From assembly GCF_055900595.2 (NCBI RefSeq), contig NZ_CM148325.1: a DNA stretch of 64,000 nt, one strand, 5' to 3'. This document shows positions 6,568-19,546 of the stretch, piece after piece (positions within the stretch are counted from its first letter, which is position 1; each line of letters begins with the position of its first letter). The notes beneath the pieces were generated by a model. It was not told where the DNA came from and searched no databases. It was given only the letters and a program-made list of their open reading frames with translations. The position numbers and the translations under genes are program-made.

Positions 6568-7782
6568 TTACCCACCCGGAGCGACATTTTCCTTTAGCGA
6601 GTGATGCCACGTTTCTTTGCGGCTGCGTAAGCTGATAAACAGTGCCAGTAAAAAGCCGATGGCAGCGATGGCGGTATCGAACCACATAATATCGGCAATA
6701 CTTCTTTGGGATAGATGAGCCGTAATCAACGGAATAGTAAAGGTCGCAATACTGCCCGCACTGTAATAGATCCCTGTAGCTTTACCTTTAGCGTAGGGGA
6801 AACGTTCAGCCATTAATGTCAGGCCAATTTGCACAACACCTCCAGCAGAGGTAAAACCAATGACAAAAGCAAATATTATCACCACATAAAATGTGGGATG
6901 CAGACAGACGGTAAACAGAGCAATAAATGAGATAAAGGTGTACAGCATGAGTAATGTTGTTGGGCGAACGGTATTACGAATGAGTGGAGCGGTAATAAAT
7001 ACACAAAGCAGCGAACCCACGGTGTAGATACTGAGTAGTTTGATCGACATAGTGTATGACATGCCTGCAACAAATTGTCCGTACTGTGCCAGCCACTGGC
7101 TAACCAGATAAAAGGTTGCCATTGAGATATAGCCATATAAGGTATAACTGGCTAAATCGATAATTGAACAGCGATGTTCCGTAGAGTTGGTGGCTTTCTC
7201 TATGACAGGTAAGCGACGACCCGGATGGGGTGGGAACGTACAACGGTATAAAAACAGAGCATTAATAAACATAATGCCTGCGGCAATCATAAAGGACCAG
7301 CCGAACCACAGTTCAGCCCACACTAACAGGCTGATGATTAGCGGTAATAAAAATTGCCCGCTGGAAACAAATGCTTTAATTAAAATATTAGCTGTACCCG
7401 GTGAACGTGGAAAAGCTTCCATCAAACTGGGATAGGTGCCTGCATCGAGAAAACTGTTTGCCATTCCCGCCAGAAAGCCCAAACCATAAGCGATAATGAT
7501 GTTATTGGTGTGCAGGATGCCAAAAAAGAAGGCCATATAGCAGCACATCCCGAGCATGATAAAAGGGCGGCGACCAAAGCGATCGGATAATAATCCTGCA
7601 AAAAGCAAGACACTTAATCGACCAATACCCAGCGATGAGATAACTATTGAGACGCCTGCGGCATTAGTCTGCCAAAGCGTCTCCAGCGAGGCCATATTCA
7701 GGCTCATCAAAATGACGCCCATACCATGCACCAGGTAATTAAAATACAACCCAAGTGCGGTAGGGAAATAGGGATTTTTCAT
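6568..7782 (-). CDS. ydiM: MFS transporter (404 aa), paralogous to ydiN
   Basis: 404-aa hydrophobic ORF with MFS D-R-x-G-R-R motif (SDRFGRRP); synteny. Confidence 0.85.
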   Translation of the reverse strand: MKNPYFPTALGLYFNYLVHGMGVILMSLNMASLETLWQTNAAGVSIVISSLGIGRLSVLLFAGLLSDRFGRRPFIMLGMCCYMAFFFGILHTNNIIIAYGLGFLAGMANSFLDAGTYPSLMEAFPRSPGTANILIKAFVSSGQFLLPLIISLLVWAELWFGWSFMIAAGIMFINALFLYRCTFPPHPGRRLPVIEKATNSTEHRCSIIDLASYTLYGYISMATFYLVSQWLAQYGQFVAGMSYTMSIKLLSIYTVGSLLCVFITAPLIRNTVRPTTLLMLYTFISFIALFTVCLHPTFYVVIIFAFVIGFTSAGGVVQIGLTLMAERFPYAKGKATGIYYSAGSIATFTIPLITAHLSQRSIADIMWFDTAIAAIGFLLALFISLRSRKETWHHSLKENVAPGG

Positions 7783-7880
7783 AGGTTCTACTTAGCAAAG
7801 GTGCTTTAAAAAGTGAAGCGATGTTGTGTCAGCATCCGTTCATTATTGTTATAACAACGACAATTCCTTTCTTTGGAAAA

Positions 7881-8237
7881 TTAACAAAGGCGCTCCAGAT
7901 CGTGTGCATATAATTCAGCGGCTACCGATTGATAGATCTTCCAGTCAATAAAATTGCCATCAGGGTAGACACGTTGAAACGCGGTTAAGTCAGGGAAAAA
8001 ACGCATGGTGTTGTTGCCGATGCGGTTATTTATTTTCTCTATGATGGCATGAAGATGTTTTTTTCGTTGCTGTCGCATAGCCAACAGTTGCTCGACCACA
8101 CGATCAGGAATGGCGCATTTGCCATTTTCCCACTGACGCCAGCTTTCACTGTCACCGGTCTGGGCAATCCAGGTCGCGCATTCATCAATAGTCATGGCAA
8201 AAATATGGCGAAGTGCCTGGAGTTCATAAGCGTTCAT
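7881..8237 (-). CDS. ydiL: small DUF1870-family protein (118 aa from MNAYELQALR)
   Basis: ORF 7881..8264; internal ATG gives the 118-aa form; synteny next to rprA. Confidence 0.75.
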   Translation of the reverse strand: MNAYELQALRHIFAMTIDECATWIAQTGDSESWRQWENGKCAIPDRVVEQLLAMRQQRKKHLHAIIEKINNRIGNNTMRFFPDLTAFQRVYPDGNFIDWKIYQSVAAELYAHDLERLC

Positions 8238-8375
8238 CGTGTAATGGCTGCATGAAATAAACAATAAAATATAAATAACATTATCAGCCTGCCGACGGCT
8301 TGAAGAGAGTCACAGTATCTTGTGCAACATTATTGGAAAGAGTGAGGGGGCGAGGTAGCGAAGCGGAAAAATGTT

Positions 8376-8481
8376 AAAAAAAAGCCCATCGTGGGAGATG
8401 GGCAAAGACTACACACAGCAATTCGTTGTTTCACTCAGGGGATTTCCATGCTTATAAATCAATATGTTGATTTATAACCGT
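8376..8481 (-). ncRNA. rprA: RprA small regulatory RNA (rpoS translational activator)
   Basis: Minus-strand sequence ACGGUUAUAAAUCAACAUAUUGAUUUAUAAGCAUGGAAAUCCCCUGAGUGAAACAACGAAUUGCUGUGUGUAGUCUUUGCCCAUCUCCCACGAUGGGCUUUUUUUU recognised as RprA; ends in a GC hairpin plus U8 terminator; located between ydiK and ydiL. Confidence 0.9.
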
Positions 8482-8666
8482 GAGCTAATAGTAGGCATAC
8501 GGACTTTTTGCGTCGATCAGATTCGTCTCATTAGTTTAAAAACTGTAAAGAATTTGCGACAGGTACTACCAGCTGAATGGCGGTAAGCAGGAAAATATAG
8601 TGAAGAGCAAGCAAATATCAATTAGCGGTGGTTAACAATCAGGCGGCAGAACCGCCTGATGAGAAA

Positions 8667-9779
8667 TTACTTATTCGGTTTCTCGATTTCGCCAAGTTCT
8701 TCGAGAATTTCTTCCGGTTGATCCGTCGGCGGTGGGACCTCTTCCACCCACGCGGCAAACAGACGCCAGGAAACGGCTAACAGAACCGGACCAATAAACA
8801 GACCGATCATCCCGAAAGCAATCAAACCACCAATAACGCCAGAGAGGATCAGGATCAGCGGTAAATCGGCACCCATGCGAATTAACATTGGGCGGATGAC
8901 GTTATCCAGCGTGCCAACCACACCGCTCCACACTAACAATACCGTTCCCCAGGTGGTATCGCCGGTCCAGTAGAGCCAGATAATCGCCGGAATCAGTACC
9001 GGCAATGGGCCAAGCTGGACAAGGCAGGAGAGGATCATTAACACCGTGAGCAACGTTGCATAAGGTACGCCGGATACCGCGAGGCCGATACCACCAAGCA
9101 CTGCCTGTACTAACGCAGTCACCACAACACCCAGCGCCACTGCGCGGATAGCTTGTGCCGCTAGCAGCACGGCGGCATCTCCACGAACGCCTGCCAGACG
9201 GGTAGCAAAATGGCGAATGCCTTGCGCCACTTGTTCACCGCGCCAGTACAGCAGGGCGCTGAAGAGAAGCATCAGCGCACAATGCACCATAAAGCGCCCG
9301 ATATGCGCCGCCTGCCCAACGAACCAGGTGGTGGTGGTGCCAATATAAGGACGGACTTTCGCCATGATCGCCGTACCCCCCATATCCAGCAAGTTGTGCC
9401 AGCCTGCATATAGCTTCGCGCCAATCACCGGAATGGTATTAAGCCACGCCAGATCGGGTAACGTCATGTCACCGCTGGAAATAGCTTTAATAAGCGGGCC
9501 GCTGCCATCGACAATACTGTTAACCAACAAGGCAATAGGGATGATAAACACCATCACTAATAACAGCGTCATCACCAGAACGGCGAGAGAGCGGCGGCCA
9601 AACATTATCTTTTGCAAACGTAACAATACCGGCCAGGTGGCGATAACCACCGTACCGGCCCATGCAAAGCCGAGAATAAAGGGTTGAACAATCCACAGAC
9701 ATGCCACAATCATGATGGCTAAAAACAGCACCGAAAGCAGAATTTGTGCGACATCCCTGGGCTGACGAACATTTACCAT
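8667..9779 (-). CDS. ydiK: AI-2E/UPF0118 family inner-membrane transporter (370 aa)
   Basis: 370-aa multi-TM ORF; synteny. Confidence 0.85.
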   Translation of the reverse strand: MVNVRQPRDVAQILLSVLFLAIMIVACLWIVQPFILGFAWAGTVVIATWPVLLRLQKIMFGRRSLAVLVMTLLLVMVFIIPIALLVNSIVDGSGPLIKAISSGDMTLPDLAWLNTIPVIGAKLYAGWHNLLDMGGTAIMAKVRPYIGTTTTWFVGQAAHIGRFMVHCALMLLFSALLYWRGEQVAQGIRHFATRLAGVRGDAAVLLAAQAIRAVALGVVVTALVQAVLGGIGLAVSGVPYATLLTVLMILSCLVQLGPLPVLIPAIIWLYWTGDTTWGTVLLVWSGVVGTLDNVIRPMLIRMGADLPLILILSGVIGGLIAFGMIGLFIGPVLLAVSWRLFAAWVEEVPPPTDQPEEILEELGEIEKPNK

Positions 9780-9989
9780 AACTACTTTTCACCTTTTTTG
9801 TGCGTCAAATCGTCGACGCGACGTGAACACGCGAAACTCACCTGCATAATGATGAGCAATTTCAGCGGTTTTTAACAGGCCGATTCTGCCCTTAATTCTG
9901 ATGGGCGTGTTAGAAAAAAATGTGGTACAACAACTCAGGCAACACGCAAACGATTTACTCGTCGTATTTCAAATTGCATGTGCTGCGGC

Positions 9990-10075
9990 TACGTTCGTTC
10001 ACCCCAGTCACTTACTTTGTAAGCTCCTGGAGTTCACTCGCTTGCCGCCTTCCTGCAACTCGAAATCCATAGAGT
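9990..10075. repeat. Structured intergenic repeat-like element, possibly a box C-type repeat
   Basis: GC-rich segment cgttcaccccagtcacttactttgtaagctcctggagttcactcgcttgccgccttcctgcaactcgaaatcc with internal inverted repeat (cttac/gtaag); resembles an E. coli intergenic repeat family from memory; not verified. Confidence 0.3.
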
Positions 10076-10164
10076 AAACAAACATCACCTTTCAGTGCGC
10101 TATTAGCAGCCTGAAAGAACAGTGTATCGTTCTACATCACAGACCGCAGGAAAGGGTCAATATA

Positions 10165-13100
10165 ATGATTCCACAGATTTCCCAGGCACCCGGCGTCGTT
10201 CAATTGGTGCTTAATTTTTTGCAAGAGCTGGAGCAACAGGGTTTTACCGGCGATACGGCGACAAGTTATGCCGATCGTCTGACAATGTCGACCGACAACA
10301 GTATTTACCAACTTCTCCCCGATGCGGTGGTATTTCCGCGTTCAACCGCAGATGTGGCGCTGATCGCCCGTCTTGCCGCGCAGGAACGCTATTCATCGCT
10401 GATCTTTACCCCCCGCGGCGGCGGCACCGGCACTAACGGTCAGGCGCTCAACCAGGGGATTATTGTTGATATGTCCCGCCATATGAACCGCATCATCGAA
10501 ATTAACCCTGAAGAGGGCTGGGTGCGCGTTGAGGCCGGGGTGATAAAAGATCAACTCAATCAGTACCTGAAACCATTCGGCTACTTTTTTGCGCCGGAAC
10601 TTTCGACCAGCAACCGGGCAACGCTCGGTGGGATGATCAATACCGATGCATCCGGTCAGGGATCGCTGGTCTATGGCAAAACGTCAGATCACGTACTTGG
10701 CGTACGCGCGGTGTTGTTGGGGGGCGATATTCTCGATACGCAACCTTTACCCGTCGAACTGGCGGAAACGCTGGGTAAATCCAATACTACAATCGGGCGA
10801 ATTTATAACACGGTTTATCAACGTTGCCGTCAGCAACGCCAGTTAATTATCGACAAATTCCCCAAACTTAACCGTTTTCTGACGGGTTACGATCTGCGTC
10901 ATGTCTTTAACGATGAGATGACTGAGTTCGACCTGACGCGCATTCTGACGGGTTCAGAAGGGACGCTGGCCTTTATTACCGAAGCGCGGCTGGATATTAC
11001 GCCCTTGCCTAAAGTGCGCCGTCTGGTGAACGTCAAATATGACTCTTTTGACTCCGCGCTGCGTAACGCGCCGTTTATGGTTGAGGCGCGGGCGCTTTCG
11101 GTAGAGACGGTAGACTCAAAAGTGCTGAATCTGGCGCGGGAAGATATTGTCTGGCATTCCGTCAGCGAGTTGATTACCGATGTGCCTGACAAAGAAATGC
11201 TCGGGCTGAACATTGTGGAATTTGCTGGTGATGATGAGACGCTGATTGATGAGCGGGTAAATGCACTCTGTGCGCGGTTGGATGAACTGATTGCCAGCCA
11301 ACAGGCAGGTGTGATTGGCTGGCAGGTGTGCCGCGAACTGGCAGGTGTTGAGCGTATTTATGCCATGCGCAAAAAAGCCGTCGGCCTGCTCGGTAATGCC
11401 AAAGGAGCAGCCAAACCGATTCCGTTTGCTGAGGATACCTGCGTACCGCCGGAACATCTGGCGGATTATATTGCTGAATTTCGCGCGCTGCTCGACAGCC
11501 ACGGCTTAAGCTACGGTATGTTCGGTCACGTCGACGCAGGTGTCTTGCACGTCCGTCCGGCACTGGATATGTGCGATCCGCAACAAGAGATTTTGATGAA
11601 GCAAATCTCTGATGATGTAGTGGCGTTGACTGCGAAATACGGTGGTTTGTTGTGGGGCGAACATGGTAAAGGTTTTCGTGCCGAATACAGCCCGGCGTTT
11701 TTCGGTGAGGAACTTTTTGCAGAACTGCGCAAAGTGAAAGCGGCATTTGACCCGCATAACCGACTCAACCCAGGGAAGATTTGCCCGCCAGAAGGTCTCG
11801 ATGCGCCGATGATGAAAGTGGACGCGGTGAAGCGTGGCACATATGATCGACAGATCCCCATCGCGGTACGCCAGCAGTGGCGCGGGGCAATGGAGTGTAA
11901 TGGCAACGGTTTATGCTTCAACTTTGATGCCCGCAGTCCGATGTGCCCGTCGATGAAGATTACTCAGAACCGGATTCATTCACCGAAAGGACGCGCAACG
12001 CTGGTGCGTGAGTGGCTGCGTTTGTTGGCAGATCGCGGCGTTGACCCACTCAAACTGGAACAAGAACTGCCTGAATCCGGAGTCAGTTTGCGGACGTTAA
12101 TTGCCCGCACGCGCAATAGCTGGCATGCGAATAAAGGCGAATATGACTTCTCACACGAAGTCAAAGAGGCGATGTCGGGTTGCCTGGCCTGTAAAGCGTG
12201 TTCGACTCAGTGCCCCATCAAAATTGACGTGCCTGAGTTTCGTTCTCGCTTTCTGCAACTCTATCACACCCGTTATTTGCGCCCCCTGCGCGACCACCTC
12301 GTCGCCACGGTCGAGAGCTACGCACCGCTGATGGCTCGTGCACCGAAGACTTTTAACTTCTTCATTAACCAGCCGCTGGTGCGCAAACTCTCCGAAAAAC
12401 ATATCGGCATGGTTGATTTGCCGCTGCTGTCGGTTCCCTCGCTGCAACAACAAATGGTGGGGCATCGCTCGGCAAACATGACGCTGGAACAGCTTGAAGT
12501 TCTCAATGCAGAGCAGAAAGCGCGCACGGTGTTGGTGGTGCAGGACCCCTTTACCAGCTATTACGATGCGCAAGTGGTGGCGGATTTTGTCCGTCTGGTC
12601 GAAAAATTAGGTTTCCAGCCCGTGTTACTGCCATTTTCGCCGAATGGCAAAGCCCAGCATATCAAAGGCTTTCTTAATCGTTTTGCGAAGACGGCGAAAA
12701 AGACGGCGGATTTCCTCAACCGTGTGGCGAAGCTGGGGATGCCAATGGTGGGCGTCGATCCGGCGCTGGTACTTTGTTATCGCGATGAATATAAACTGGC
12801 GCTGGGCGAGGAACGTGGCGAGTTTAACGTCTTACTGGCGAATGAATGGCTGGCAAGCGCACTTGACTCACAGCCAGTGGCTACAGTCAGCGGTGAATCA
12901 TGGTATTTCTTTGGTCACTGTACCGAGGTTACCGCTTTGCCGGGCGCGCCAGCACAATGGGCTGCGATATTTGCCCGTTTTGGCGCGAAACTGGAAAATG
13001 TCAGCGTGGGTTGCTGCGGCATGGCAGGGACTTACGGACATGAAGCGAAAAATCATAAAAACTCGCTCGGGATCTATGAGTTATCCTGGCATCAGGCGAT

Positions 13101-13221
13101 GCAGCGACTGCCGCGTAACCGCTGTCTGGCGACCGGATATTCCTGTCGCGGCCAGGTAAAACGGGTTGAAGGCACGGGGGTACGCCATCCTGTGCAGGCT
13201 TTACTGGAGATTATTAAATGA
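10165..13221 (+). CDS. ydiJ: large FAD-linked oxidase fused to Fe-S/CCG domains (1018 aa)
   Basis: 1018-aa ORF; N-terminal FAD-binding oxidase region, C-terminal ferredoxin-like CLACKACSTQCP and GCCGMAG motifs; ATGA overlap with menI. Confidence 0.9.
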   Translation: MIPQISQAPGVVQLVLNFLQELEQQGFTGDTATSYADRLTMSTDNSIYQLLPDAVVFPRSTADVALIARLAAQERYSSLIFTPRGGGTGTNGQALNQGIIVDMSRHMNRIIEINPEEGWVRVEAGVIKDQLNQYLKPFGYFFAPELSTSNRATLGGMINTDASGQGSLVYGKTSDHVLGVRAVLLGGDILDTQPLPVELAETLGKSNTTIGRIYNTVYQRCRQQRQLIIDKFPKLNRFLTGYDLRHVFNDEMTEFDLTRILTGSEGTLAFITEARLDITPLPKVRRLVNVKYDSFDSALRNAPFMVEARALSVETVDSKVLNLAREDIVWHSVSELITDVPDKEMLGLNIVEFAGDDETLIDERVNALCARLDELIASQQAGVIGWQVCRELAGVERIYAMRKKAVGLLGNAKGAAKPIPFAEDTCVPPEHLADYIAEFRALLDSHGLSYGMFGHVDAGVLHVRPALDMCDPQQEILMKQISDDVVALTAKYGGLLWGEHGKGFRAEYSPAFFGEELFAELRKVKAAFDPHNRLNPGKICPPEGLDAPMMKVDAVKRGTYDRQIPIAVRQQWRGAMECNGNGLCFNFDARSPMCPSMKITQNRIHSPKGRATLVREWLRLLADRGVDPLKLEQELPESGVSLRTLIARTRNSWHANKGEYDFSHEVKEAMSGCLACKACSTQCPIKIDVPEFRSRFLQLYHTRYLRPLRDHLVATVESYAPLMARAPKTFNFFINQPLVRKLSEKHIGMVDLPLLSVPSLQQQMVGHRSANMTLEQLEVLNAEQKARTVLVVQDPFTSYYDAQVVADFVRLVEKLGFQPVLLPFSPNGKAQHIKGFLNRFAKTAKKTADFLNRVAKLGMPMVGVDPALVLCYRDEYKLALGEERGEFNVLLANEWLASALDSQPVATVSGESWYFFGHCTEVTALPGAPAQWAAIFARFGAKLENVSVGCCGMAGTYGHEAKNHKNSLGIYELSWHQAMQRLPRNRCLATGYSCRGQVKRVEGTGVRHPVQALLEIIK

Positions 13222-13628
13222 TATGGAAACGAAAAATCACCCTGGAAGCACTGAATGCAATGGGTGAAGGAAACATGGTGGGGTTGCTGGATATTCGCTT
13301 TGAACATATTGGTGATGACACCCTTGAAGCGACAATGCCAGTAGACTCGCGGACAAAGCAGCCTTTCGGGTTGCTGCATGGAGGGGCATCCGTGGTATTG
13401 GCCGAAAGTATCGGTTCCGTTGCCGGTTATTTATGTACCGAAGGTGAGCAAAAGGTGGTTGGTCTGGAAATCAATGCTAATCATGTTCGCTCGGCACGAG
13501 AAGGGCGGGTACGCGGCGTATGTAAACCGTTGCATCTCGGTTCACGTCATCAGGTTTGGCAGATAGAAATCCTCGATGAGAAAGGGCGTTTGTGCTGTTC
13601 GTCACGATTGACGACAGCCATTTTGTGA
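13218..13628 (+). CDS. menI: 1,4-dihydroxy-2-naphthoyl-CoA thioesterase, hotdog fold (136 aa)
   Basis: 136-aa ORF MIWKRKITLEALNAMGEGNMVGLLDIRFEH...; start overlaps the ydiJ stop. Confidence 0.9.
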   Translation: MIWKRKITLEALNAMGEGNMVGLLDIRFEHIGDDTLEATMPVDSRTKQPFGLLHGGASVVLAESIGSVAGYLCTEGEQKVVGLEINANHVRSAREGRVRGVCKPLHLGSRHQVWQIEILDEKGRLCCSSRLTTAIL

Positions 13629-13727
13629 CGTTGTCACCAGAAAAATGTGACGCATATTGCTTTTGGTCATTATCTGCACAGTAAACGGTGGTATACTGTG
13701 CAGGTCTTGTCTAAAAGCGAGGATGCT

Positions 13728-13916
13728 ATGTCTACTCAACTTGATCCCACCCAGCTGGCCATTGAATTTTTACGCCGTGACCAAAGCAATCTTTCACCTG
13801 CCCAATATCTCAAACGTCTGAAACAATTAGAACTTGAATTCGCTGACTTGCTTACTCTCTCTTCTGCTGAATTAAAAGAAGAAATCTACTTTGCCTGGCG
13901 TTTGGGCGTGCATTGA
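13728..13916 (+). CDS. ydiH: small protein of unknown function (62 aa from MSTQLDPTQ)
   Basis: ATG at 13728 within ORF 13647..13916; synteny between menI and sufA. Confidence 0.7.
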   Translation: MSTQLDPTQLAIEFLRRDQSNLSPAQYLKRLKQLELEFADLLTLSSAELKEEIYFAWRLGVH

Positions 13917-14054
13917 TCCTGACGTAATGCCGCGAGTTCGCCAAATCGGCCTGGATTAATCTTCGTCCAGGTTCGAGGGCCTTCTTAATACTGCTTATCT
14001 ACCCGCCTGATAACGTTCAAAAATAATACAAATCGCAGTTTGTGCTAAAACGGC

Positions 14055-14177
14055 GGCTTAGCTTTATGAGACTATTCTTATCGCCCCTTCGAGCTAAGCC
14101 ACTGTGAGTGCCGGAGATAAGCGCCGGATGGGGTAGAAACCCTTAAGCCTGTGATGCACAGACTTAAGGGTTTTCTT
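14055..14177 (+). ncRNA. Candidate small RNA locus ending in a strong intrinsic terminator (position matches rydB; sequence not verified)
   Basis: Nested inverted repeats (gcttagc/gctaagc, cttatc/gataag) followed by an 11-bp perfect stem aaacccttaag/cttaagggttt and a T-tract; about 220 nt downstream of ydiH and 290 nt upstream of sufA. Confidence 0.35.
14137..14177 (+). terminator. Rho-independent terminator (11-bp perfect stem plus T-tract)
   Basis: aaacccttaag-N15-cttaagggtttt followed by cttatttc; U-tract only on the + strand. Confidence 0.7.
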
Positions 14178-14267
14178 ATTTCTGAACGCTGCACTTTTTT
14201 ACCTATCTCTTAAATAGTCATTTTCAATACAACTTTTTCTTTTTCATCACAGCCTTAATGCTCCTTA

Positions 14268-14283
14268 GATAATAATCATTATC
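14268..14283. promoter_or_regulatory. Distal Fur-box-like motif (GATAATAATCATTATC)
   Basis: Shares the 12-mer ATAATCATTATC with the promoter-proximal site 133 bp downstream; matches Fur consensus GATAATGATAATCATTATC. Confidence 0.45.
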
Positions 14284-14403
14284 TAACAATGAGATACCTA
14301 ATTCTTAGCGTGCCTGTTAACCCACACATCAGGGTCTATGCTTATTAAAAGCAGGCAAAAAGCATGTTTTACGGTAAAGCCCCTGCGTTTGCTGGGTTGA
14401 ACT

Positions 14404-14416
14404 GATAATCATTATC
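14404..14416. promoter_or_regulatory. Promoter-proximal Fur box of the suf operon, overlapping the core promoter (TTGAAC -35-like just upstream)
   Basis: GATAATCATTATC about 47 bp upstream of the sufA ATG; suf operon is a known Fur target. Confidence 0.7.
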
Positions 14417-14462
14417 ACTAACATGCTGTTATACGCTGAAAGCGATGAAGTGAGGTAAATCG

Positions 14463-14831
14463 ATGGACATGCATTCAGGAACCTTTAATCCACAGGATTT
14501 CGCCTGGCAGGGTTTAACGCTGACACCCGCAGCCGCTGTCCACATCCGTGAGCTGGTGGCAAAGCAACCAGGTATGGTCGGCGTGCGCTTAGGCGTGAAG
14601 CAAACGGGCTGCGCGGGATTTGGCTATGTGCTCGACAGTGTTAGCGAGCCAGACAAAGACGATCTGCTGTTTGAACATGACGGCGCGAAGCTGTTTGTCC
14701 CGCTGCAAGCGATGCCGTTTATTGATGGCACGGAAGTCGATTTCGTTCGTGAAGGACTTAATCAGATATTCAAATTTCACAACCCGAAAGCCCAGAATGA
14801 ATGTGGCTGTGGCGAAAGCTTTGGGGTATAG
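14463..14831 (+). CDS. sufA: Fe-S cluster A-type carrier (122 aa)
   Basis: 122-aa [21 protein letters not shown]..., C-terminal CGCGESF motif. Confidence 0.95.
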
Positions 14832-14839
14832 GCGGTACT

Positions 14840-16327
14840 ATGTCTCGTAATACTGAAGCAACTGACGATGTCAAAACCTGGACCGGCGGCCCGCTGAATT
14901 ATAAAGAAGGATTCTTCACCCAGTTAGCCACTGATGAGCTGGCAAAGGGGATAAACGAAGAGGTGGTGCGCGCAATATCGGCGAAGCGTAATGAGCCGGA
15001 GTGGATGCTGGAGTTTCGTCTCAATGCCTATCGCGCATGGCTGGAGATGGAAGAGCCGCACTGGCTGAAAGCGCACTACGACAAGCTGAATTATCAGGAT
15101 TACAGCTACTACTCAGCACCATCGTGCGGTAATTGTGACGACAACTGCGCGTCTGAACCCGGCGCGGTGCAGCAAACTGGCGCGAACGCCTTTTTAAGTA
15201 AAGAGGTGGAGGCGGCGTTTGAGCAGTTGGGCGTTCCCGTGCGGGAAGGCAAAGAGGTGGCGGTGGATGCCATTTTCGACTCTGTTTCGGTTGCCACCAC
15301 TTATCGCGAAAAACTGGCGGAGCAGGGAATTATTTTTTGCTCCTTTGGCGAGGCGATCCACGATCACCCGGAACTGGTGCGTAAATATCTCGGCACCGTG
15401 GTGCCGGGGAATGACAACTTCTTTGCCGCGCTTAATGCGGCGGTAGCCTCTGACGGTACGTTTATTTATGTGCCTAAAGGCGTGCGCTGCCCGATGGAAC
15501 TTTCCACCTATTTTCGCATTAACGCGGAAAAAACCGGGCAGTTTGAGCGCACCATTCTGGTGGCCGACGAAGACAGCTACGTCAGCTACATTGAAGGCTG
15601 TTCCGCTCCGGTGCGTGACAGCTATCAGTTACACGCGGCGGTGGTGGAAGTCATCATCCATAAAAACGCCGAGGTGAAATATTCCACGGTACAAAACTGG
15701 TTCCCTGGCGATAACAACACCGGCGGTATTCTCAATTTCGTCACCAAGCGTGCTTTGTGCGAAGGCGAAAACAGCAAAATGTCATGGACGCAATCAGAAA
15801 CCGGGTCAGCGATTACGTGGAAATATCCCAGCTGCATTTTGCGCGGCGATAACTCCATTGGTGAGTTTTACTCGGTGGCACTGACCAGCGGTCATCAGCA
15901 AGCGGATACCGGCACCAAGATGATCCACATCGGTAAAAACACCAAATCGACCATTATCTCGAAAGGGATCTCTGCCGGACATAGTCAGAACAGTTATCGC
16001 GGCTTAGTGAAAATCATGCCGACGGCAACCAATGCGCGCAATTTCACTCAGTGCGACTCAATGCTGATTGGCGCTAATTGTGGGGCGCATACCTTCCCGT
16101 ATGTCGAATGTCGCAATAACAGCGCACAACTGGAGCACGAGGCAACGACATCACGTATTGGTGAAGATCAACTGTTTTACTGCCTGCAACGCGGGATCAG
16201 CGAAGAAGACGCCATCTCGATGATTGTTAACGGTTTCTGCAAAGACGTGTTCTCAGAACTGCCGCTGGAATTTGCCGTTGAAGCACAAAAACTCCTCGCC
16301 ATCAGTCTTGAACACAGCGTCGGATAA
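14840..16327 (+). CDS. sufB: Fe-S cluster assembly scaffold SufB (495 aa from [10 protein letters not shown])
   Basis: ATG at 14840 within ORF 14801..16327; SufB sequence. Confidence 0.95.
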
Positions 16328-16336
16328 GGAATAAAC

Positions 16337-17083
16337 ATGTTAAGTATTAAAGATTTACACGTCAGCGTGGAAGATAAAACTATCCTGCGCGGATTAAGCC
16401 TCGACGTTCGTCCCGGCGAAGTTCACGCCATTATGGGACCCAATGGTTCGGGGAAAAGTACCTTATCGGCAACGCTTGCCGGACGCGAAGATTATGAAGT
16501 GACGGCTGGCACGGTTGAGTTTAAAGGCAAAGATTTGCTTGCGCTGTCGCCGGAAGAACGTGCAGGCGAAGGCATCTTTATGGCCTTCCAGTATCCGGTG
16601 GAAATACCCGGCGTCAGTAACCAGTTTTTCCTGCAAACGGCACTTAATGCGGTACGCAGCTATCGCGGCCAGGAAACGCTCGACCGCTTTGATTTTCAGG
16701 ATTTGATGGAAGAGAAAATCGCTCTTCTGAAAATGCCGGAAGATTTATTAACGCGTTCGGTAAACGTTGGTTTTTCCGGCGGCGAGAAAAAGCGCAACGA
16801 TATTTTGCAAATGGCGGTGCTGGAACCGGAGTTATGCATTCTTGATGAGTCGGACTCCGGGCTGGATATTGACGCATTAAAAGTGGTTGCCGATGGCGTG
16901 AACTCGCTGCGTGACGGCAAGCGTTCATTCATCATTGTTACGCACTACCAACGCATTCTCGACTACATCAAGCCTGATTACGTCCATGTGCTGTATCAGG
17001 GACGAATTGTGAAATCCGGCGATTTCACATTGGTCAAACAACTGGAGGAGCAGGGTTATGGCTGGCTTACCGAACAGCAGTAA
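16337..17083 (+). CDS. sufC: Fe-S cluster assembly ATPase SufC (248 aa)
   Basis: Walker A GPNGSGKST; ABC signature FSGGEKKR. Confidence 0.95.
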   Translation: MLSIKDLHVSVEDKTILRGLSLDVRPGEVHAIMGPNGSGKSTLSATLAGREDYEVTAGTVEFKGKDLLALSPEERAGEGIFMAFQYPVEIPGVSNQFFLQTALNAVRSYRGQETLDRFDFQDLMEEKIALLKMPEDLLTRSVNVGFSGGEKKRNDILQMAVLEPELCILDESDSGLDIDALKVVADGVNSLRDGKRSFIIVTHYQRILDYIKPDYVHVLYQGRIVKSGDFTLVKQLEEQGYGWLTEQQ

Positions 17084-18329
17084 CGTGCTGCAACAGTGGC
17101 ATCATTTGTTTGAAGCCGAGGGTGCAAAACGCTCCCCGCAAGCACAGCAGCATTTACAACAATTGCTGCGTACCGGACTGCCGACACGTAAACATGAAAA
17201 CTGGAAATATACGCCGCTGGAAGGGCTGACCAATAGCCAGTTTGTCAGCATTGCGGGAGAGATATCCCCACAGCAGCGTGATGCCTTAGCGTTAACATTA
17301 GACGCTGTGCGGCTGGTTTATGTTGATGGACGCTACGTGCCAGAACTTAGCGATACAACTGAAGGCAGCGGGTATGAAGTGAGCATTAACGACGACCGTC
17401 AGGGATTGCCCGATGCTATTCAGGCGGAAGTATTTCTCCATCTGACGGAAAGCCTGGCGCAAAGCGTGACGCATATCGCCGTGAAGCGCGGTCAACGGCC
17501 GGCAAAGCCATTACTGTTAATGCATATCACCCAGGGCGTGGCAGGTGAAGTGGTGAACACAGCTCATTACCGGCATCATCTGGATCTGGCTGAAGGTGCC
17601 GAAGCGACGGTGATTGAGCATTTCGTTAGCCTGAATGACGCTCGTCATTTCACCGGAGCGCGCTTTACCATCAATGTCGCAGCGAACGCCCACTTGCAGC
17701 ATATCAAGCTGGCGTTTGAAAACCCGGTCAGTCACCACTTTGCCCATAACGATTTGTTGCTGGCTGACGATGCCACTGCAATTAGCCACAGTTTCCTGCT
17801 GGGTGGCGCAGTATTACGACACAACACCAGTACGCAACTCAATGGCGAAAACAGCACGCTGCGGATCAATAGTCTGGCGATGCCGGTGAAAAACGAGGTG
17901 TGTGATACCCGTACCTGGCTGGAACACAATAAAGGTTTTTGTAACAGCCGACAGTTGCACAAAACTATCGTCAGCGACAAAGGCCGCGCGGTATTTAACG
18001 GTTTGATCAACGTCGCGCAGCACGCCATCAAAACGGATGGTCAGATGACCAACAATAATCTGCTGATGGGCAAACTGGCAGAAGTGGATACGAAACCGCA
18101 GCTGGAAATCTATGCAGATGATGTGAAATGCAGCCACGGCGCGACGGTGGGGCGTATTGATGATGAACAGATGTTCTATCTGCGCTCGCGTGGGATCAAT
18201 CAGCAGGATGCCCAGCAGATGATCATTTACGCCTTTGCTGCCGAACTGACGGAAGCACTGCGTGATGAGGGGCTTAAACAGCAGGTGCTGGCCCGAATCG
18301 GTCAACGACTGCCAGGAGGTGCAAGATGA
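17058..18329 (+). CDS. sufD: Fe-S cluster assembly protein SufD (423 aa)
   Basis: 423-aa ORF overlapping the sufC 3' end by 26 nt. Confidence 0.95.
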
Positions 18330-19546
18330 CTTTTTCCGTCGACAAAGTGCGGGCCGACTTTCCGGTGCTTTCTCGTGAGGTAAACGGTTTGCCGCTGGCT
18401 TATCTCGACAGCGCTGCCAGTGCGCAAAAACCGAGCCAGGTGATTGATGCCGAGGCGGTGTTCTATCGTCACGGCTACGCGGCGGTACATCGCGGTATTC
18501 ATACCTTAAGCGCCCAGGCGACCGAGAAAATGGAAAACGTGCGCAAGCGTGCTTCGCTGTTTATCAATGCCCGTTCCGCGGAAGAATTGGTGTTTGTCCG
18601 CGGCACCACGGAAGGCATTAACCTGGTCGCCAATAGCTGGGGCAACAGCAACGTGCGAGCGGGCGATAACATCATCATCAGCCAGATGGAGCACCACGCT
18701 AACATTGTTCCCTGGCAAATGCTTTGCGCGCGAGTGGGTGCAGAGCTGCGTGTGATTCCTCTCAACCCCGACGGTACGTTGCAGCTGGAGATACTGCCTA
18801 ATCTGTTCGATGAGAAAACTCGCCTGCTGGCAATTACCCATGTCTCCAACGTGCTTGGGACAGAAAATCCGCTGGCCGAGATGATCACCCTTGCACACCA
18901 ACATGGCGCAAAAGTACTGGTGGATGGCGCTCAGGCGGTGATGCATCATCCGGTGGACGTTCAGGCGCTGGATTGCGATTTTTACGTGTTCTCCGGGCAT
19001 AAACTGTATGGCCCCACTGGAATTGGCATTCTTTATGTCAAAGAAGCCTTGTTGCAGGAGATGCCGCCGTGGGAAGGGGGCGGTTCGATGATTGCCACCG
19101 TCAGCCTGAGTGAAGGCACTACCTGGACTAAAGCACCATGGCGGTTTGAAGCCGGCACACCCAATACCGGAGGCATCATTGGTCTTGGCGCGGCACTCGA
19201 GTATGTTTCGGGGCTGGGGCTTAATAACATAGCCGAGTATGAACAGAATCTGATGCATTACGCGCTGTCACAGCTGGAGTCTGTACCGGATCTCACTCTC
19301 TATGGTCCCCAGAACAGACTTGGCGTTATTGCTTTTAATCTTGGTAAACACCACGCCTATGATGTTGGCAGTTTTCTCGATAATTACGGCATTGCTGTGC
19401 GTACCGGACATCACTGCGCTATGCCATTAATGGCCTATTACAACGTTCCTGCCATGTGTCGGGCGTCGCTGGCTATGTATAACACCCATGAAGAAGTGGA
19501 TCGTCTGGTGACCGGCCTGCAACGTATTCACCGTCTGCTGGGATAA
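18326..19546 (+). CDS. sufS: cysteine desulfurase SufS, PLP-dependent (406 aa)
   Basis: 406-aa ORF; class V aminotransferase features; ATGA overlap with sufD. Confidence 0.95.

Follow-up and report, generated by a model that had tools for sequence, protein, structure and literature searches.

What reaction is catalyzed by a single polypeptide that joins a flavoprotein to an iron-sulfur protein, where do the electrons removed from its substrate go, and does the overlap of its gene with the start of the thioesterase gene menI say anything about its function? These questions are raised by the ydiJ locus in the DNA analyzed here, a stretch of 64,000 nucleotides from contig NZ_CM148325.1 of the NCBI RefSeq assembly GCF_055900595.2 (hereafter the window). 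The best explanation is that the open reading frame (ORF) is ydiJ, encoding the flavin adenine dinucleotide (FAD)- and iron-sulfur-dependent D-2-hydroxyglutarate (D-2-HG) dehydrogenase of the Enterobacteriaceae. We put the probability of this explanation as a whole at about 0.93, the enzymatic activity itself having been shown for the YdiJ proteins of Escherichia coli K-12 and Pantoea ananatis only.

Identity and function of the fused dehydrogenase

The window protein scores 1726.7 bits against the NCBIfam equivalog NF049975 "D-2-hydroxyglutarate dehydrogenase YdiJ" (cutoff 1350), in an alignment that covers residues 1-1016 of 1018. It belongs with E. coli K-12 YdiJ (b1687, P77748) and Pantoea ananatis YdiJ, that is, with the YdiJ family of Samsonov et al. 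(2022). The syntenic K-12 gene b1687 has the same length of 1018 residues and carries the annotation "D-2-hydroxyglutarate dehydrogenase", and the gene order of K-12 b1684-b1689 is identical to that of the window, with ydiK divergent from ydiJ-menI-ydiH, followed by rydB and sufA. Almost every complete E. coli genome (5424 of 5426) contains the ydiJ region, annotated there as ydiJ ("D-2-hydroxyglutarate dehydrogenase YdiJ") and menI. The differences from the K-12 gene are allelic only: nucleotide identity is 96.3%, and the 3.7% that differs is mostly synonymous, 100 of the 112 differences falling at third codon positions. Of the 1018 residues, 1007 are identical, and the 11 substitutions lie away from the conserved sites, none of them affecting a conserved Cys, His or Glu. 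Because the differences are concentrated at third positions and the gene is carried by nearly all of the genomes, ydiJ is, judged by its pattern of substitution, a conserved gene under strong purifying selection rather than a chance ORF.

The function of this family has been described in detail. Samsonov et al. (2022; PMC9504171) came upon ydiJ by screening for growth on D-2-HG, and deletion of the gene leads to the accumulation of D-2-HG at 4.2 g/L in E. coli MG1655 and 2.7 g/L in P. ananatis, rising with overproduction of SerA to as much as 25 and 12 g/L, respectively (PMC9504171). The purified protein of 110 kDa is an apparent homotetramer with a Km of 83 uM and strict specificity for D-2-HG; in assays with phenazine ethosulfate/dichlorophenolindophenol (PES/DCIP) as the acceptor it was inactive on 11 other acids, namely L-2-HG, D- and L-malate, D- and L-lactate, D- and L-tartrate, D- and L-glycerate, glutarate and pyruvate (PMC9504171). 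Biosensor data published in 2025 in Nature Communications show that D-2-HG accumulates to the same degree whether the GlcD part, the GlpC part or all of ydiJ is deleted, and that deletion of serA abolishes the accumulation in a ydiJ mutant (PMC12297413). The role of YdiJ, as shown for the K-12 orthologue, is to return D-2-HG, a by-product of SerA in serine synthesis, to 2-oxoglutarate. FAD and a [4Fe-4S] cluster were found in the as-isolated protein, according to papers that cite Estellon et al. (2014).

Gene, activity and physiological role are already known, and ydiJ is an ordinary, characterized housekeeping enzyme. The original prediction, made from the sequence alone, had named the 1018-residue ORF ydiJ and suggested, with some doubt, a 2-hydroxyglutarate dehydrogenase activity; the name agrees with the ORF, the equivalog match and the K-12 synteny, and the suggested activity with both published studies (PMC9504171, PMC12297413). 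No unrelated activity stands firmly assigned to the protein, since the published activity is that of a D-2-HG dehydrogenase.

A more distant member of the same architecture is Pseudomonas putida PP_4493, likewise a fusion of GlcD and GlpC parts and 51.1% identical to E. coli YdiJ (PMC12297413). It was tied to D-2-HG oxidation by fitness profiling in 2019, and its knock-out accumulates D-2-HG; unlike YdiJ, it serves the catabolism of D-lysine and 2-aminoadipate, has no menI neighbor and lies outside operons (10.1101/450254).

The flavoprotein half and the iron-sulfur half

Conservation was assessed in a family alignment of 126 sequences, consisting of the window protein and 125 representatives with 32-58% identity. 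The diversity was drawn from representatives of 50% clusters, the listed close homologues all being at least 89% identical and useless for conservation.

In the N-terminal half, Pfam detects FAD_binding_4 followed by the substrate-binding or cap domain (Table 1), the domain pair of the VAO/PCMH-type D-2-hydroxyacid dehydrogenases, as expected from the FAD-linked oxidase region of the original prediction. Sequence matches in the PDB comprise LctD (7qh2_C, 1e-31), a glycolate oxidase (9qgz_A), mouse D-lactate dehydrogenase (8jdc_A) and human D-2-hydroxyglutarate dehydrogenase (D2HGDH; 6lpn_A, 5.5e-21). The HMMER alignment to 6lpn brings H455, H462, E499 and H500 of YdiJ together with human H434, H441, E475 and H476, in the stretches "GHvdaGvlH" and "GEHG"; in the human enzyme, His434, His441 and Glu475 are zinc ligands and His476 is the catalytic base (PMC7801405). 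YdiJ has, in other words, a metal site of His-x6-His plus Glu and, after it, the catalytic His, and these four cap-domain residues, as well as R402 and R464, are each at least 95% conserved in the family. Since the catalytic residues of human D2HGDH are conserved in YdiJ, we infer metal-assisted hydride transfer to FAD as in the human enzyme.

Reaction, VAO/PCMH fold, metal site and catalytic His are shared with the human/Pseudomonas stutzeri-type D2HGDHs (6lpn), but these are about half as long as YdiJ, have no iron-sulfur half and use the electron-transferring flavoprotein (ETF) and ETF-quinone oxidoreductase (ETF/ETF-QO) as acceptor (PMC12297413). The published view is likewise that YdiJ forms a family of its own, sharing only about 23-25% identity with the P. 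stutzeri-type enzymes (PMC9504171). A difference is also evident at the distal end of the substrate, as the C5-carboxylate is bound in the human protein by Lys401 and Asn443 (PMC7801405), to which Ala422 and Arg464 correspond in YdiJ, Phe453 taking the place of Tyr432 in the same alignment. This pair places YdiJ outside the human/P. stutzeri-type subfamily, and because Lys401 is replaced by Ala422 and Asn443 by the family-invariant Arg464, the C5-carboxylate is probably held differently from the human enzyme, through Arg464. The codons of A422 and R464 are at positions 11428-11430 and 11554-11556 of the window.

Over its whole length, the C-terminal half can be aligned with the iron-sulfur subunits GlpC, of the anaerobic glycerol-3-phosphate dehydrogenase GlpABC, and GlcF, of the glycolate dehydrogenase GlcDEF, the order of a ferredoxin-like domain and then two CCG-type repeats being shared; in YdiJ, unlike in GlpC and GlcF, this half forms one chain with the flavoprotein and its first CCG repeat has lost all cysteines. 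A fused GlcD+GlcF-like architecture had been predicted, and Pfam, the GlpC model, the alignments with GlpC and GlcF and the profile comparison all agree with it. The NCBIfam GlpC model NF008369 aligns over residues 664-1016 (8.8e-31), BLASTP aligns YdiJ with K-12 GlpC over 366 columns (3e-12), and hhalign relates a profile of the YdiJ family (residues 760-1018) to an alignment of YkgE, GlpC and GlcF with 98.2% probability (E 2.9e-14, 217 columns). An AlphaFold model of residues 546-1018 (pLDDT 96.0, pTM 0.93) gave, as best solved structures in Foldseek, Mycobacterium smegmatis EtfD (9ojn), LutA and three HdrB chains at probability 1.00; the match to EtfD has an E value of 1.8e-5 and a TM score of 0.52 over 495 columns, and that to HdrB a TM score of 0.56 normalized to the target. 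A sequence search of the PDB with the C-terminal half returned two chance-level matches only (E 0.28 and 0.9).

Pfam itself is silent on these repeats: its CCG family (PF02754) has no match at E<=10 in the C-terminal 458 or 273 residues of YdiJ, whereas it matches E. coli GlpC, GlcF and YkgE in two stretches each. Taken alone, this miss would speak against the predicted CCG module. Since the GlpC model, hhalign and the AlphaFold fold matches detect the repeats in the tail, the CCG module is real, and tandem CCG domains are present in YdiJ in spite of the Pfam miss. The CCG repeats of the YdiJ family are an annotation blind spot of Pfam. In the precomputed Pfam annotation, all listed YdiJ relatives are likewise without CCG. 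Domain annotation, the check proposed with the original prediction, thus recovered the FAD domains and Fer4_8 and left the CCG repeats to profile-profile and fold comparison.

The distribution of cysteines is what sets this half apart. The motif CxxCxxCxxxCP, correctly predicted in the C-terminal half, occurs once, as CLACKACSTQCP at residues 673-684 (C673, C676, C679, C683), within the region matched by Fer4_8. The first ferredoxin motif is a three-cysteine variant, C578-x5-C584-x9-C594-P, and an insert of about 78 residues separates it from the complete one; YdiJ has therefore one complete motif and not the two of GlpC-, GlcF- or HdrD-like proteins. All seven cysteines of this domain are kept in 125-126 of the 126 sequences. 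In the CCG module, the prediction of cysteine motifs in the plural holds for one repeat of the two: GCCGMAG is found once, at residues 949-955 in the second repeat, and the first repeat has no cysteine conserved across the family. The first repeat nonetheless keeps D794 and G835 in all 126 sequences, K829 in 125 and G828 in 122, and because these positions are so strongly conserved, the cysteine-free repeat appears to have retained a role without a cluster. Conserved in the second repeat are H918-C919, C950-C951-G952, C994 and H1008, giving a C-x30-CC-x42-C pattern in which the customary CxxC is without its first Cys, as in E. coli GlcF; neither repeat thus shows the full C-Xn-CCG-Xm-CxxC signature. 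Conservation in at least 124 of the 126 sequences is limited to exactly 11 cysteines (3+4+4); YdiJ has eight more, which are not conserved.

This pattern can be compared with what is known of the clusters. A chemoproteomics preprint assigned C673 and C683 as ligands and noted that one ferredoxin motif is complete and the other incomplete (10.1101/2021.04.01.438105), and according to an AlphaFold-based survey, YdiJ should have two [4Fe-4S] sites and a single [2Fe-2S] site (10.1101/2021.10.08.463726). Mycobacterial EtfD (9ojn) and HdrB/HdrC of heterodisulfide reductase (5odc) likewise combine a ferredoxin-like domain with CCG domains, and theirs form an iron-sulfur wire; in EtfD, the CCG domains hold a noncubane [4Fe-4S] and a linear [3Fe-4S] cluster in a wire to menaquinone (PMC13083937). 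EtfD differs from YdiJ in its five transmembrane helices, in its b heme and in carrying cysteines in both CCG domains (PMC13083937); YdiJ lacks the membrane part and has a single cysteine-bearing CCG repeat, with a C...CC...C pattern that matches neither EtfD site.

The junction with menI and the locus in relatives

The gene downstream of ydiJ is menI, as predicted: its product reaches 309.7 bits against NF007631 (cutoff 226), matches PF03061 at 8.4e-18 and differs from its K-12 counterpart at 2 residues. The predicted overlap of the ydiJ stop with the menI start is evident as the tetranucleotide ATGA at 13218-13221, and the same 4-nucleotide overlap joins ydiJ and menI in K-12. The blocks CTGGAGAT and ATGAT at the junction are identical in the window, K-12 and Enterobacter, where the locus (90% protein identity) has also kept the divergent ydiK upstream and ydiH downstream. 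No promoter- or terminator-like site was found at the junction by a consensus scan that is overall at chance level (4 versus 4.6 and 5 versus 6.1 sites in shuffled sequence, with no excess, over 9700-14600); the same scan of 9700-14600 gave no usable ydiJ promoter. The overlap would put ydiJ and menI into a common transcription unit, leaving no space for a terminator between them, and ribosomes finishing ydiJ may restart on menI; co-transcription and termination-reinitiation are plausible from this geometry.

How far does this arrangement extend? Beyond E. coli and Enterobacter, 10 loci of ydiJ homologues were compared, and in none of them is the homologue followed by a hotdog thioesterase gene. 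The menI overlap was considered as a trait of the whole YdiJ family and rejected, as none of the 10 distant loci has it; the overlap is a trait of the Enterobacteriaceae, and the adjacency of menI looks like local operon history more than a property of the enzyme. Of the lineages compared, E. coli and Enterobacter alone pair ydiJ with menI, which makes the pairing weak evidence of a functional link to menaquinone. A different neighbor is found in two homologues with 49% and 44% identity to the window protein, where serA directly precedes the ydiJ homologue in the same orientation (Table 1), an adjacency that independently supports the published metabolic coupling of SerA and YdiJ. The serA adjacency is not present at the E. 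coli ydiJ locus. The polyprenyl-diphosphate synthases divergent from two further homologues are hepta- or octaprenyl-like, and their position may have to do with quinones or be due to chance; as the context is the same in both loci, they are counted as a single event, and the synthases are below all equivalog cutoffs.

Table 1. Features of the ydiJ locus in the window and genes beside more distant ydiJ homologues (loci L006 to L018; identities are to the window protein)
Feature	Sequence	Coordinates	Strand	Evidence and remarks
ydiJ coding sequence, D-2-hydroxyglutarate dehydrogenase	window	10165..13221 including stop	+	ATG start, 1018 aa; NF049975
FAD-binding domain, VAO/PCMH type, aa 52-192	window	10318..10740	+	Pfam PF01565 FAD_binding_4, 2e-38
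Substrate-binding/cap domain, aa 281-539	window	11005..11781	+	Pfam PF02913 FAD-oxidase_C, 3e-68
Ferredoxin-like two-motif Fe-S domain, aa 577-687	window	11893..12225	+	Pfam Fer4_8, 2e-6, 28.6 bits versus cutoff 27
First CCG-type repeat, about aa 789-880	window	12529..12804	+	GlpC/GlcF alignment, hhalign, column statistics
Second CCG-type repeat, about aa 912-1015	window	12898..13209	+	Motif, alignments, fold matches to HdrB (5odc_B), LutA, EtfD
ydiJ/menI junction	window	13206..13221	+	GGAG 13206-13209, 8-nt spacer, menI ATG 13218-13220, ydiJ TGA 13219-13221
menI (ydiI), 1,4-dihydroxy-2-naphthoyl-CoA hydrolase, hotdog fold, 136 aa	window	13218..13628	+	NF007631, Pfam 4HBT, K-12 b1686
ydiH, small protein, 62 aa, next gene on same strand	window	13728..13916	+	PF15930 YdiH 2.5e-43, K-12 b1685
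ydiK, AI-2E family transporter, divergent from ydiJ	window	8667..9779	-	PF01594 4e-64, K-12 b1688
Small RNA RprA	window	8374-8481	-	Rfam, 118.5 bits; flanks locus as in K-12
Small RNA rydB	window	14083-14141	+	Rfam, 71.7 bits; flanks locus as in K-12
Divergent ydiK-like gene upstream; lpp and pykF directly downstream	L006			58% identity
serA immediately upstream	L007	2515-3744	same as ydiJ homologue	49% identity; NF008759 662 bits, cutoff 404
serA immediately upstream	L008	2693-3940	same as ydiJ homologue	44% identity; NF008759 606 bits, cutoff 404
Long-chain polyprenyl-diphosphate synthase upstream; Ham1-like gene downstream	L013	2855-3826 (synthase)	divergent (synthase)	38% identity
Long-chain polyprenyl-diphosphate synthase upstream; Ham1-like gene downstream	L014	2823-3749 (synthase)	divergent (synthase)	35% identity
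Unrelated neighbors: LysR- or GntR-type regulators, thiamine pyrophosphate (TPP) enzymes	L011, L015, L016, L017, L018

The surroundings of the locus show some further features. Over 12 kb (positions 6853-18849), identity of the window to K-12 is only 96.6%; in the ydiJ-menI region (10000-13700), the best of the 5426 complete E. coli genomes, strain RMDEC465, is 98.0% identical, and the next ones are at 97.3%. The DNA therefore seems to come from an Escherichia lineage with few representatives among the complete genomes. A promoter-like match lies at 13631-13658, just 3' of menI. The program-made ORF for ydiH (13647-13916, plus strand) starts with GTG and encodes 89 residues; the 62-residue protein starting at 13728 is the one that agrees with Pfam YdiH and with the annotation of K-12. 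The intergenic region between ydiK and ydiJ (9780-10164) contains an imperfect palindrome within 9940-10100, with arms at 9954-9978 and 10054-10078 that are 76% complementary. Its core resembles the consensus of the enterobacterial repetitive element ERIC/IRU (enterobacterial repetitive intergenic consensus/intergenic repeat unit). Because this stretch of 161 nucleotides is matched in 4257 of the 5426 E. coli genomes and ydiJ in 5424, the presence of the repeat appears polymorphic, as expected for an inserted repeat.

Electron acceptor and rival readings

We suggest that D-2-HG binds in the GlcD-like half, opposite the flavin, where the divalent-metal site of H455, H462 and E499 would polarize the C2-hydroxyl and H500 would take the proton while the hydride passes to FAD. 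Electrons would then leave the flavin via the fused GlpC/GlcF-like half, by a route and over cluster types that we infer as follows: a cubane [4Fe-4S] cluster on C673, C676 and C679 together with C594, a possible second cluster on C578, C584 and C683, and a further cluster on the sole intact CCG repeat (C919, C950, C951 and C994). By analogy with GlpABC, GlcDEF, the D-lactate dehydrogenases with a GlpC domain, and EtfD, the electrons most likely end up in the membrane quinone pool; for YdiJ, the 2025 paper likewise only suggested a quinone (PMC12297413).

Several points weigh against this scheme. The reactivity of C594 did not change in the chemoproteomics experiments, a poor fit to simple ligation of the cluster in the complete motif, and the as-isolated protein showed one cluster only (10.1101/2021.04.01.438105), where conservation suggests up to three sites. 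YdiJ has, unlike EtfD, no recognizable membrane anchor or heme domain, and the published assays all used PES/DCIP. As for the junction, the proposed coupling is drawn from geometry, and its own GGAG could let menI initiate independently.

The fused iron-sulfur half might instead feed a soluble partner (ferredoxin, flavodoxin or an ETF-like protein) or oxygen, or be mainly structural or regulatory. The natural acceptor was stated as unknown in the 2022 paper (PMC9504171), the D2HGDHs that consist of the GlcD domain only use ETF (PMC12297413), and the lack of a transmembrane or heme domain, in contrast to the best structural match EtfD, would suit such an outlet. However, the 11 cysteines stay invariant even in family members with as little as 32% identity, which speaks for a functioning redox chain. 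GlpC, GlcF and LutA connect dehydrogenases with the respiratory chain. The EtfD module does the same (PMC13083937), and deletion of the GlpC half leads to the D-2-HG accumulation of the full knock-out (PMC12297413). We consider this alternative unlikely, though worth keeping in mind. That the enzyme is at heart a glycolate or D-lactate oxidase-type fusion of GlcD and GlcF, with D-2-HG as a side activity, could be read from the partial match to the glcD model TIGR00387 (1.9e-56) and the structural matches to D-lactate dehydrogenase and LctD. The scores are far below the cutoffs (191.7 versus 567.9 for TIGR00387, and 118.3 versus 897 for NF008408), the purified protein does not act on D- or L-lactate, malate, tartrate, glycerate or L-2-HG (PMC9504171), and the knock-out phenotype is specific to D-2-HG (PMC9504171, PMC12297413), so that this reading is largely refuted.

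Could the overlap with menI mean that YdiJ is functionally tied to menaquinone or demethylmenaquinone, whether by using it as acceptor or through its biosynthesis, with the two proteins made in fixed proportion? The ATGA and GGAG are kept between E. coli and Enterobacter, and in two loci the ydiJ homologue has as its divergent neighbor the gene of a polyprenyl-diphosphate synthase, which takes part in making quinone side chains. Adjacent and overlapping but functionally unrelated genes are, on the other hand, common in enterobacterial operons. The closest solved structure, EtfD, reduces menaquinone (PMC13083937), but even the homologue with 58% identity that keeps a ydiK-like neighbor is among the 10 loci that have no thioesterase downstream, and the synthase context amounts to one event with scores under every equivalog cutoff. 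We regard a tie of this kind as very unlikely. A related speculation, to which we give slightly more credit while still holding it distinctly unlikely, is that the four-cysteine CCG site may hold an unusual noncubane or linear cluster, of the kinds recently seen in EtfD and Hdr, and pass electrons straight to quinone at the surface of the membrane, without heme or anchor, the cysteine-free first repeat being reused as a docking site for quinone or membrane and the menI overlap reflecting a preference for (demethyl)menaquinone.

As a discovery, ydiJ matters little, because it was published in 2022 and 2025 and is already contained in the RefSeq and NCBIfam annotation. The interest that remains lies in the electron acceptor, in the number and type of iron-sulfur clusters in the reduced GlpC-like half, and in the CCG repeats missed by Pfam; to these points, the window contributes conservation patterns only. 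They bear on the use of YdiJ-type enzymes as self-contained scavengers of D-2-HG, as has been suggested (PMC12297413).

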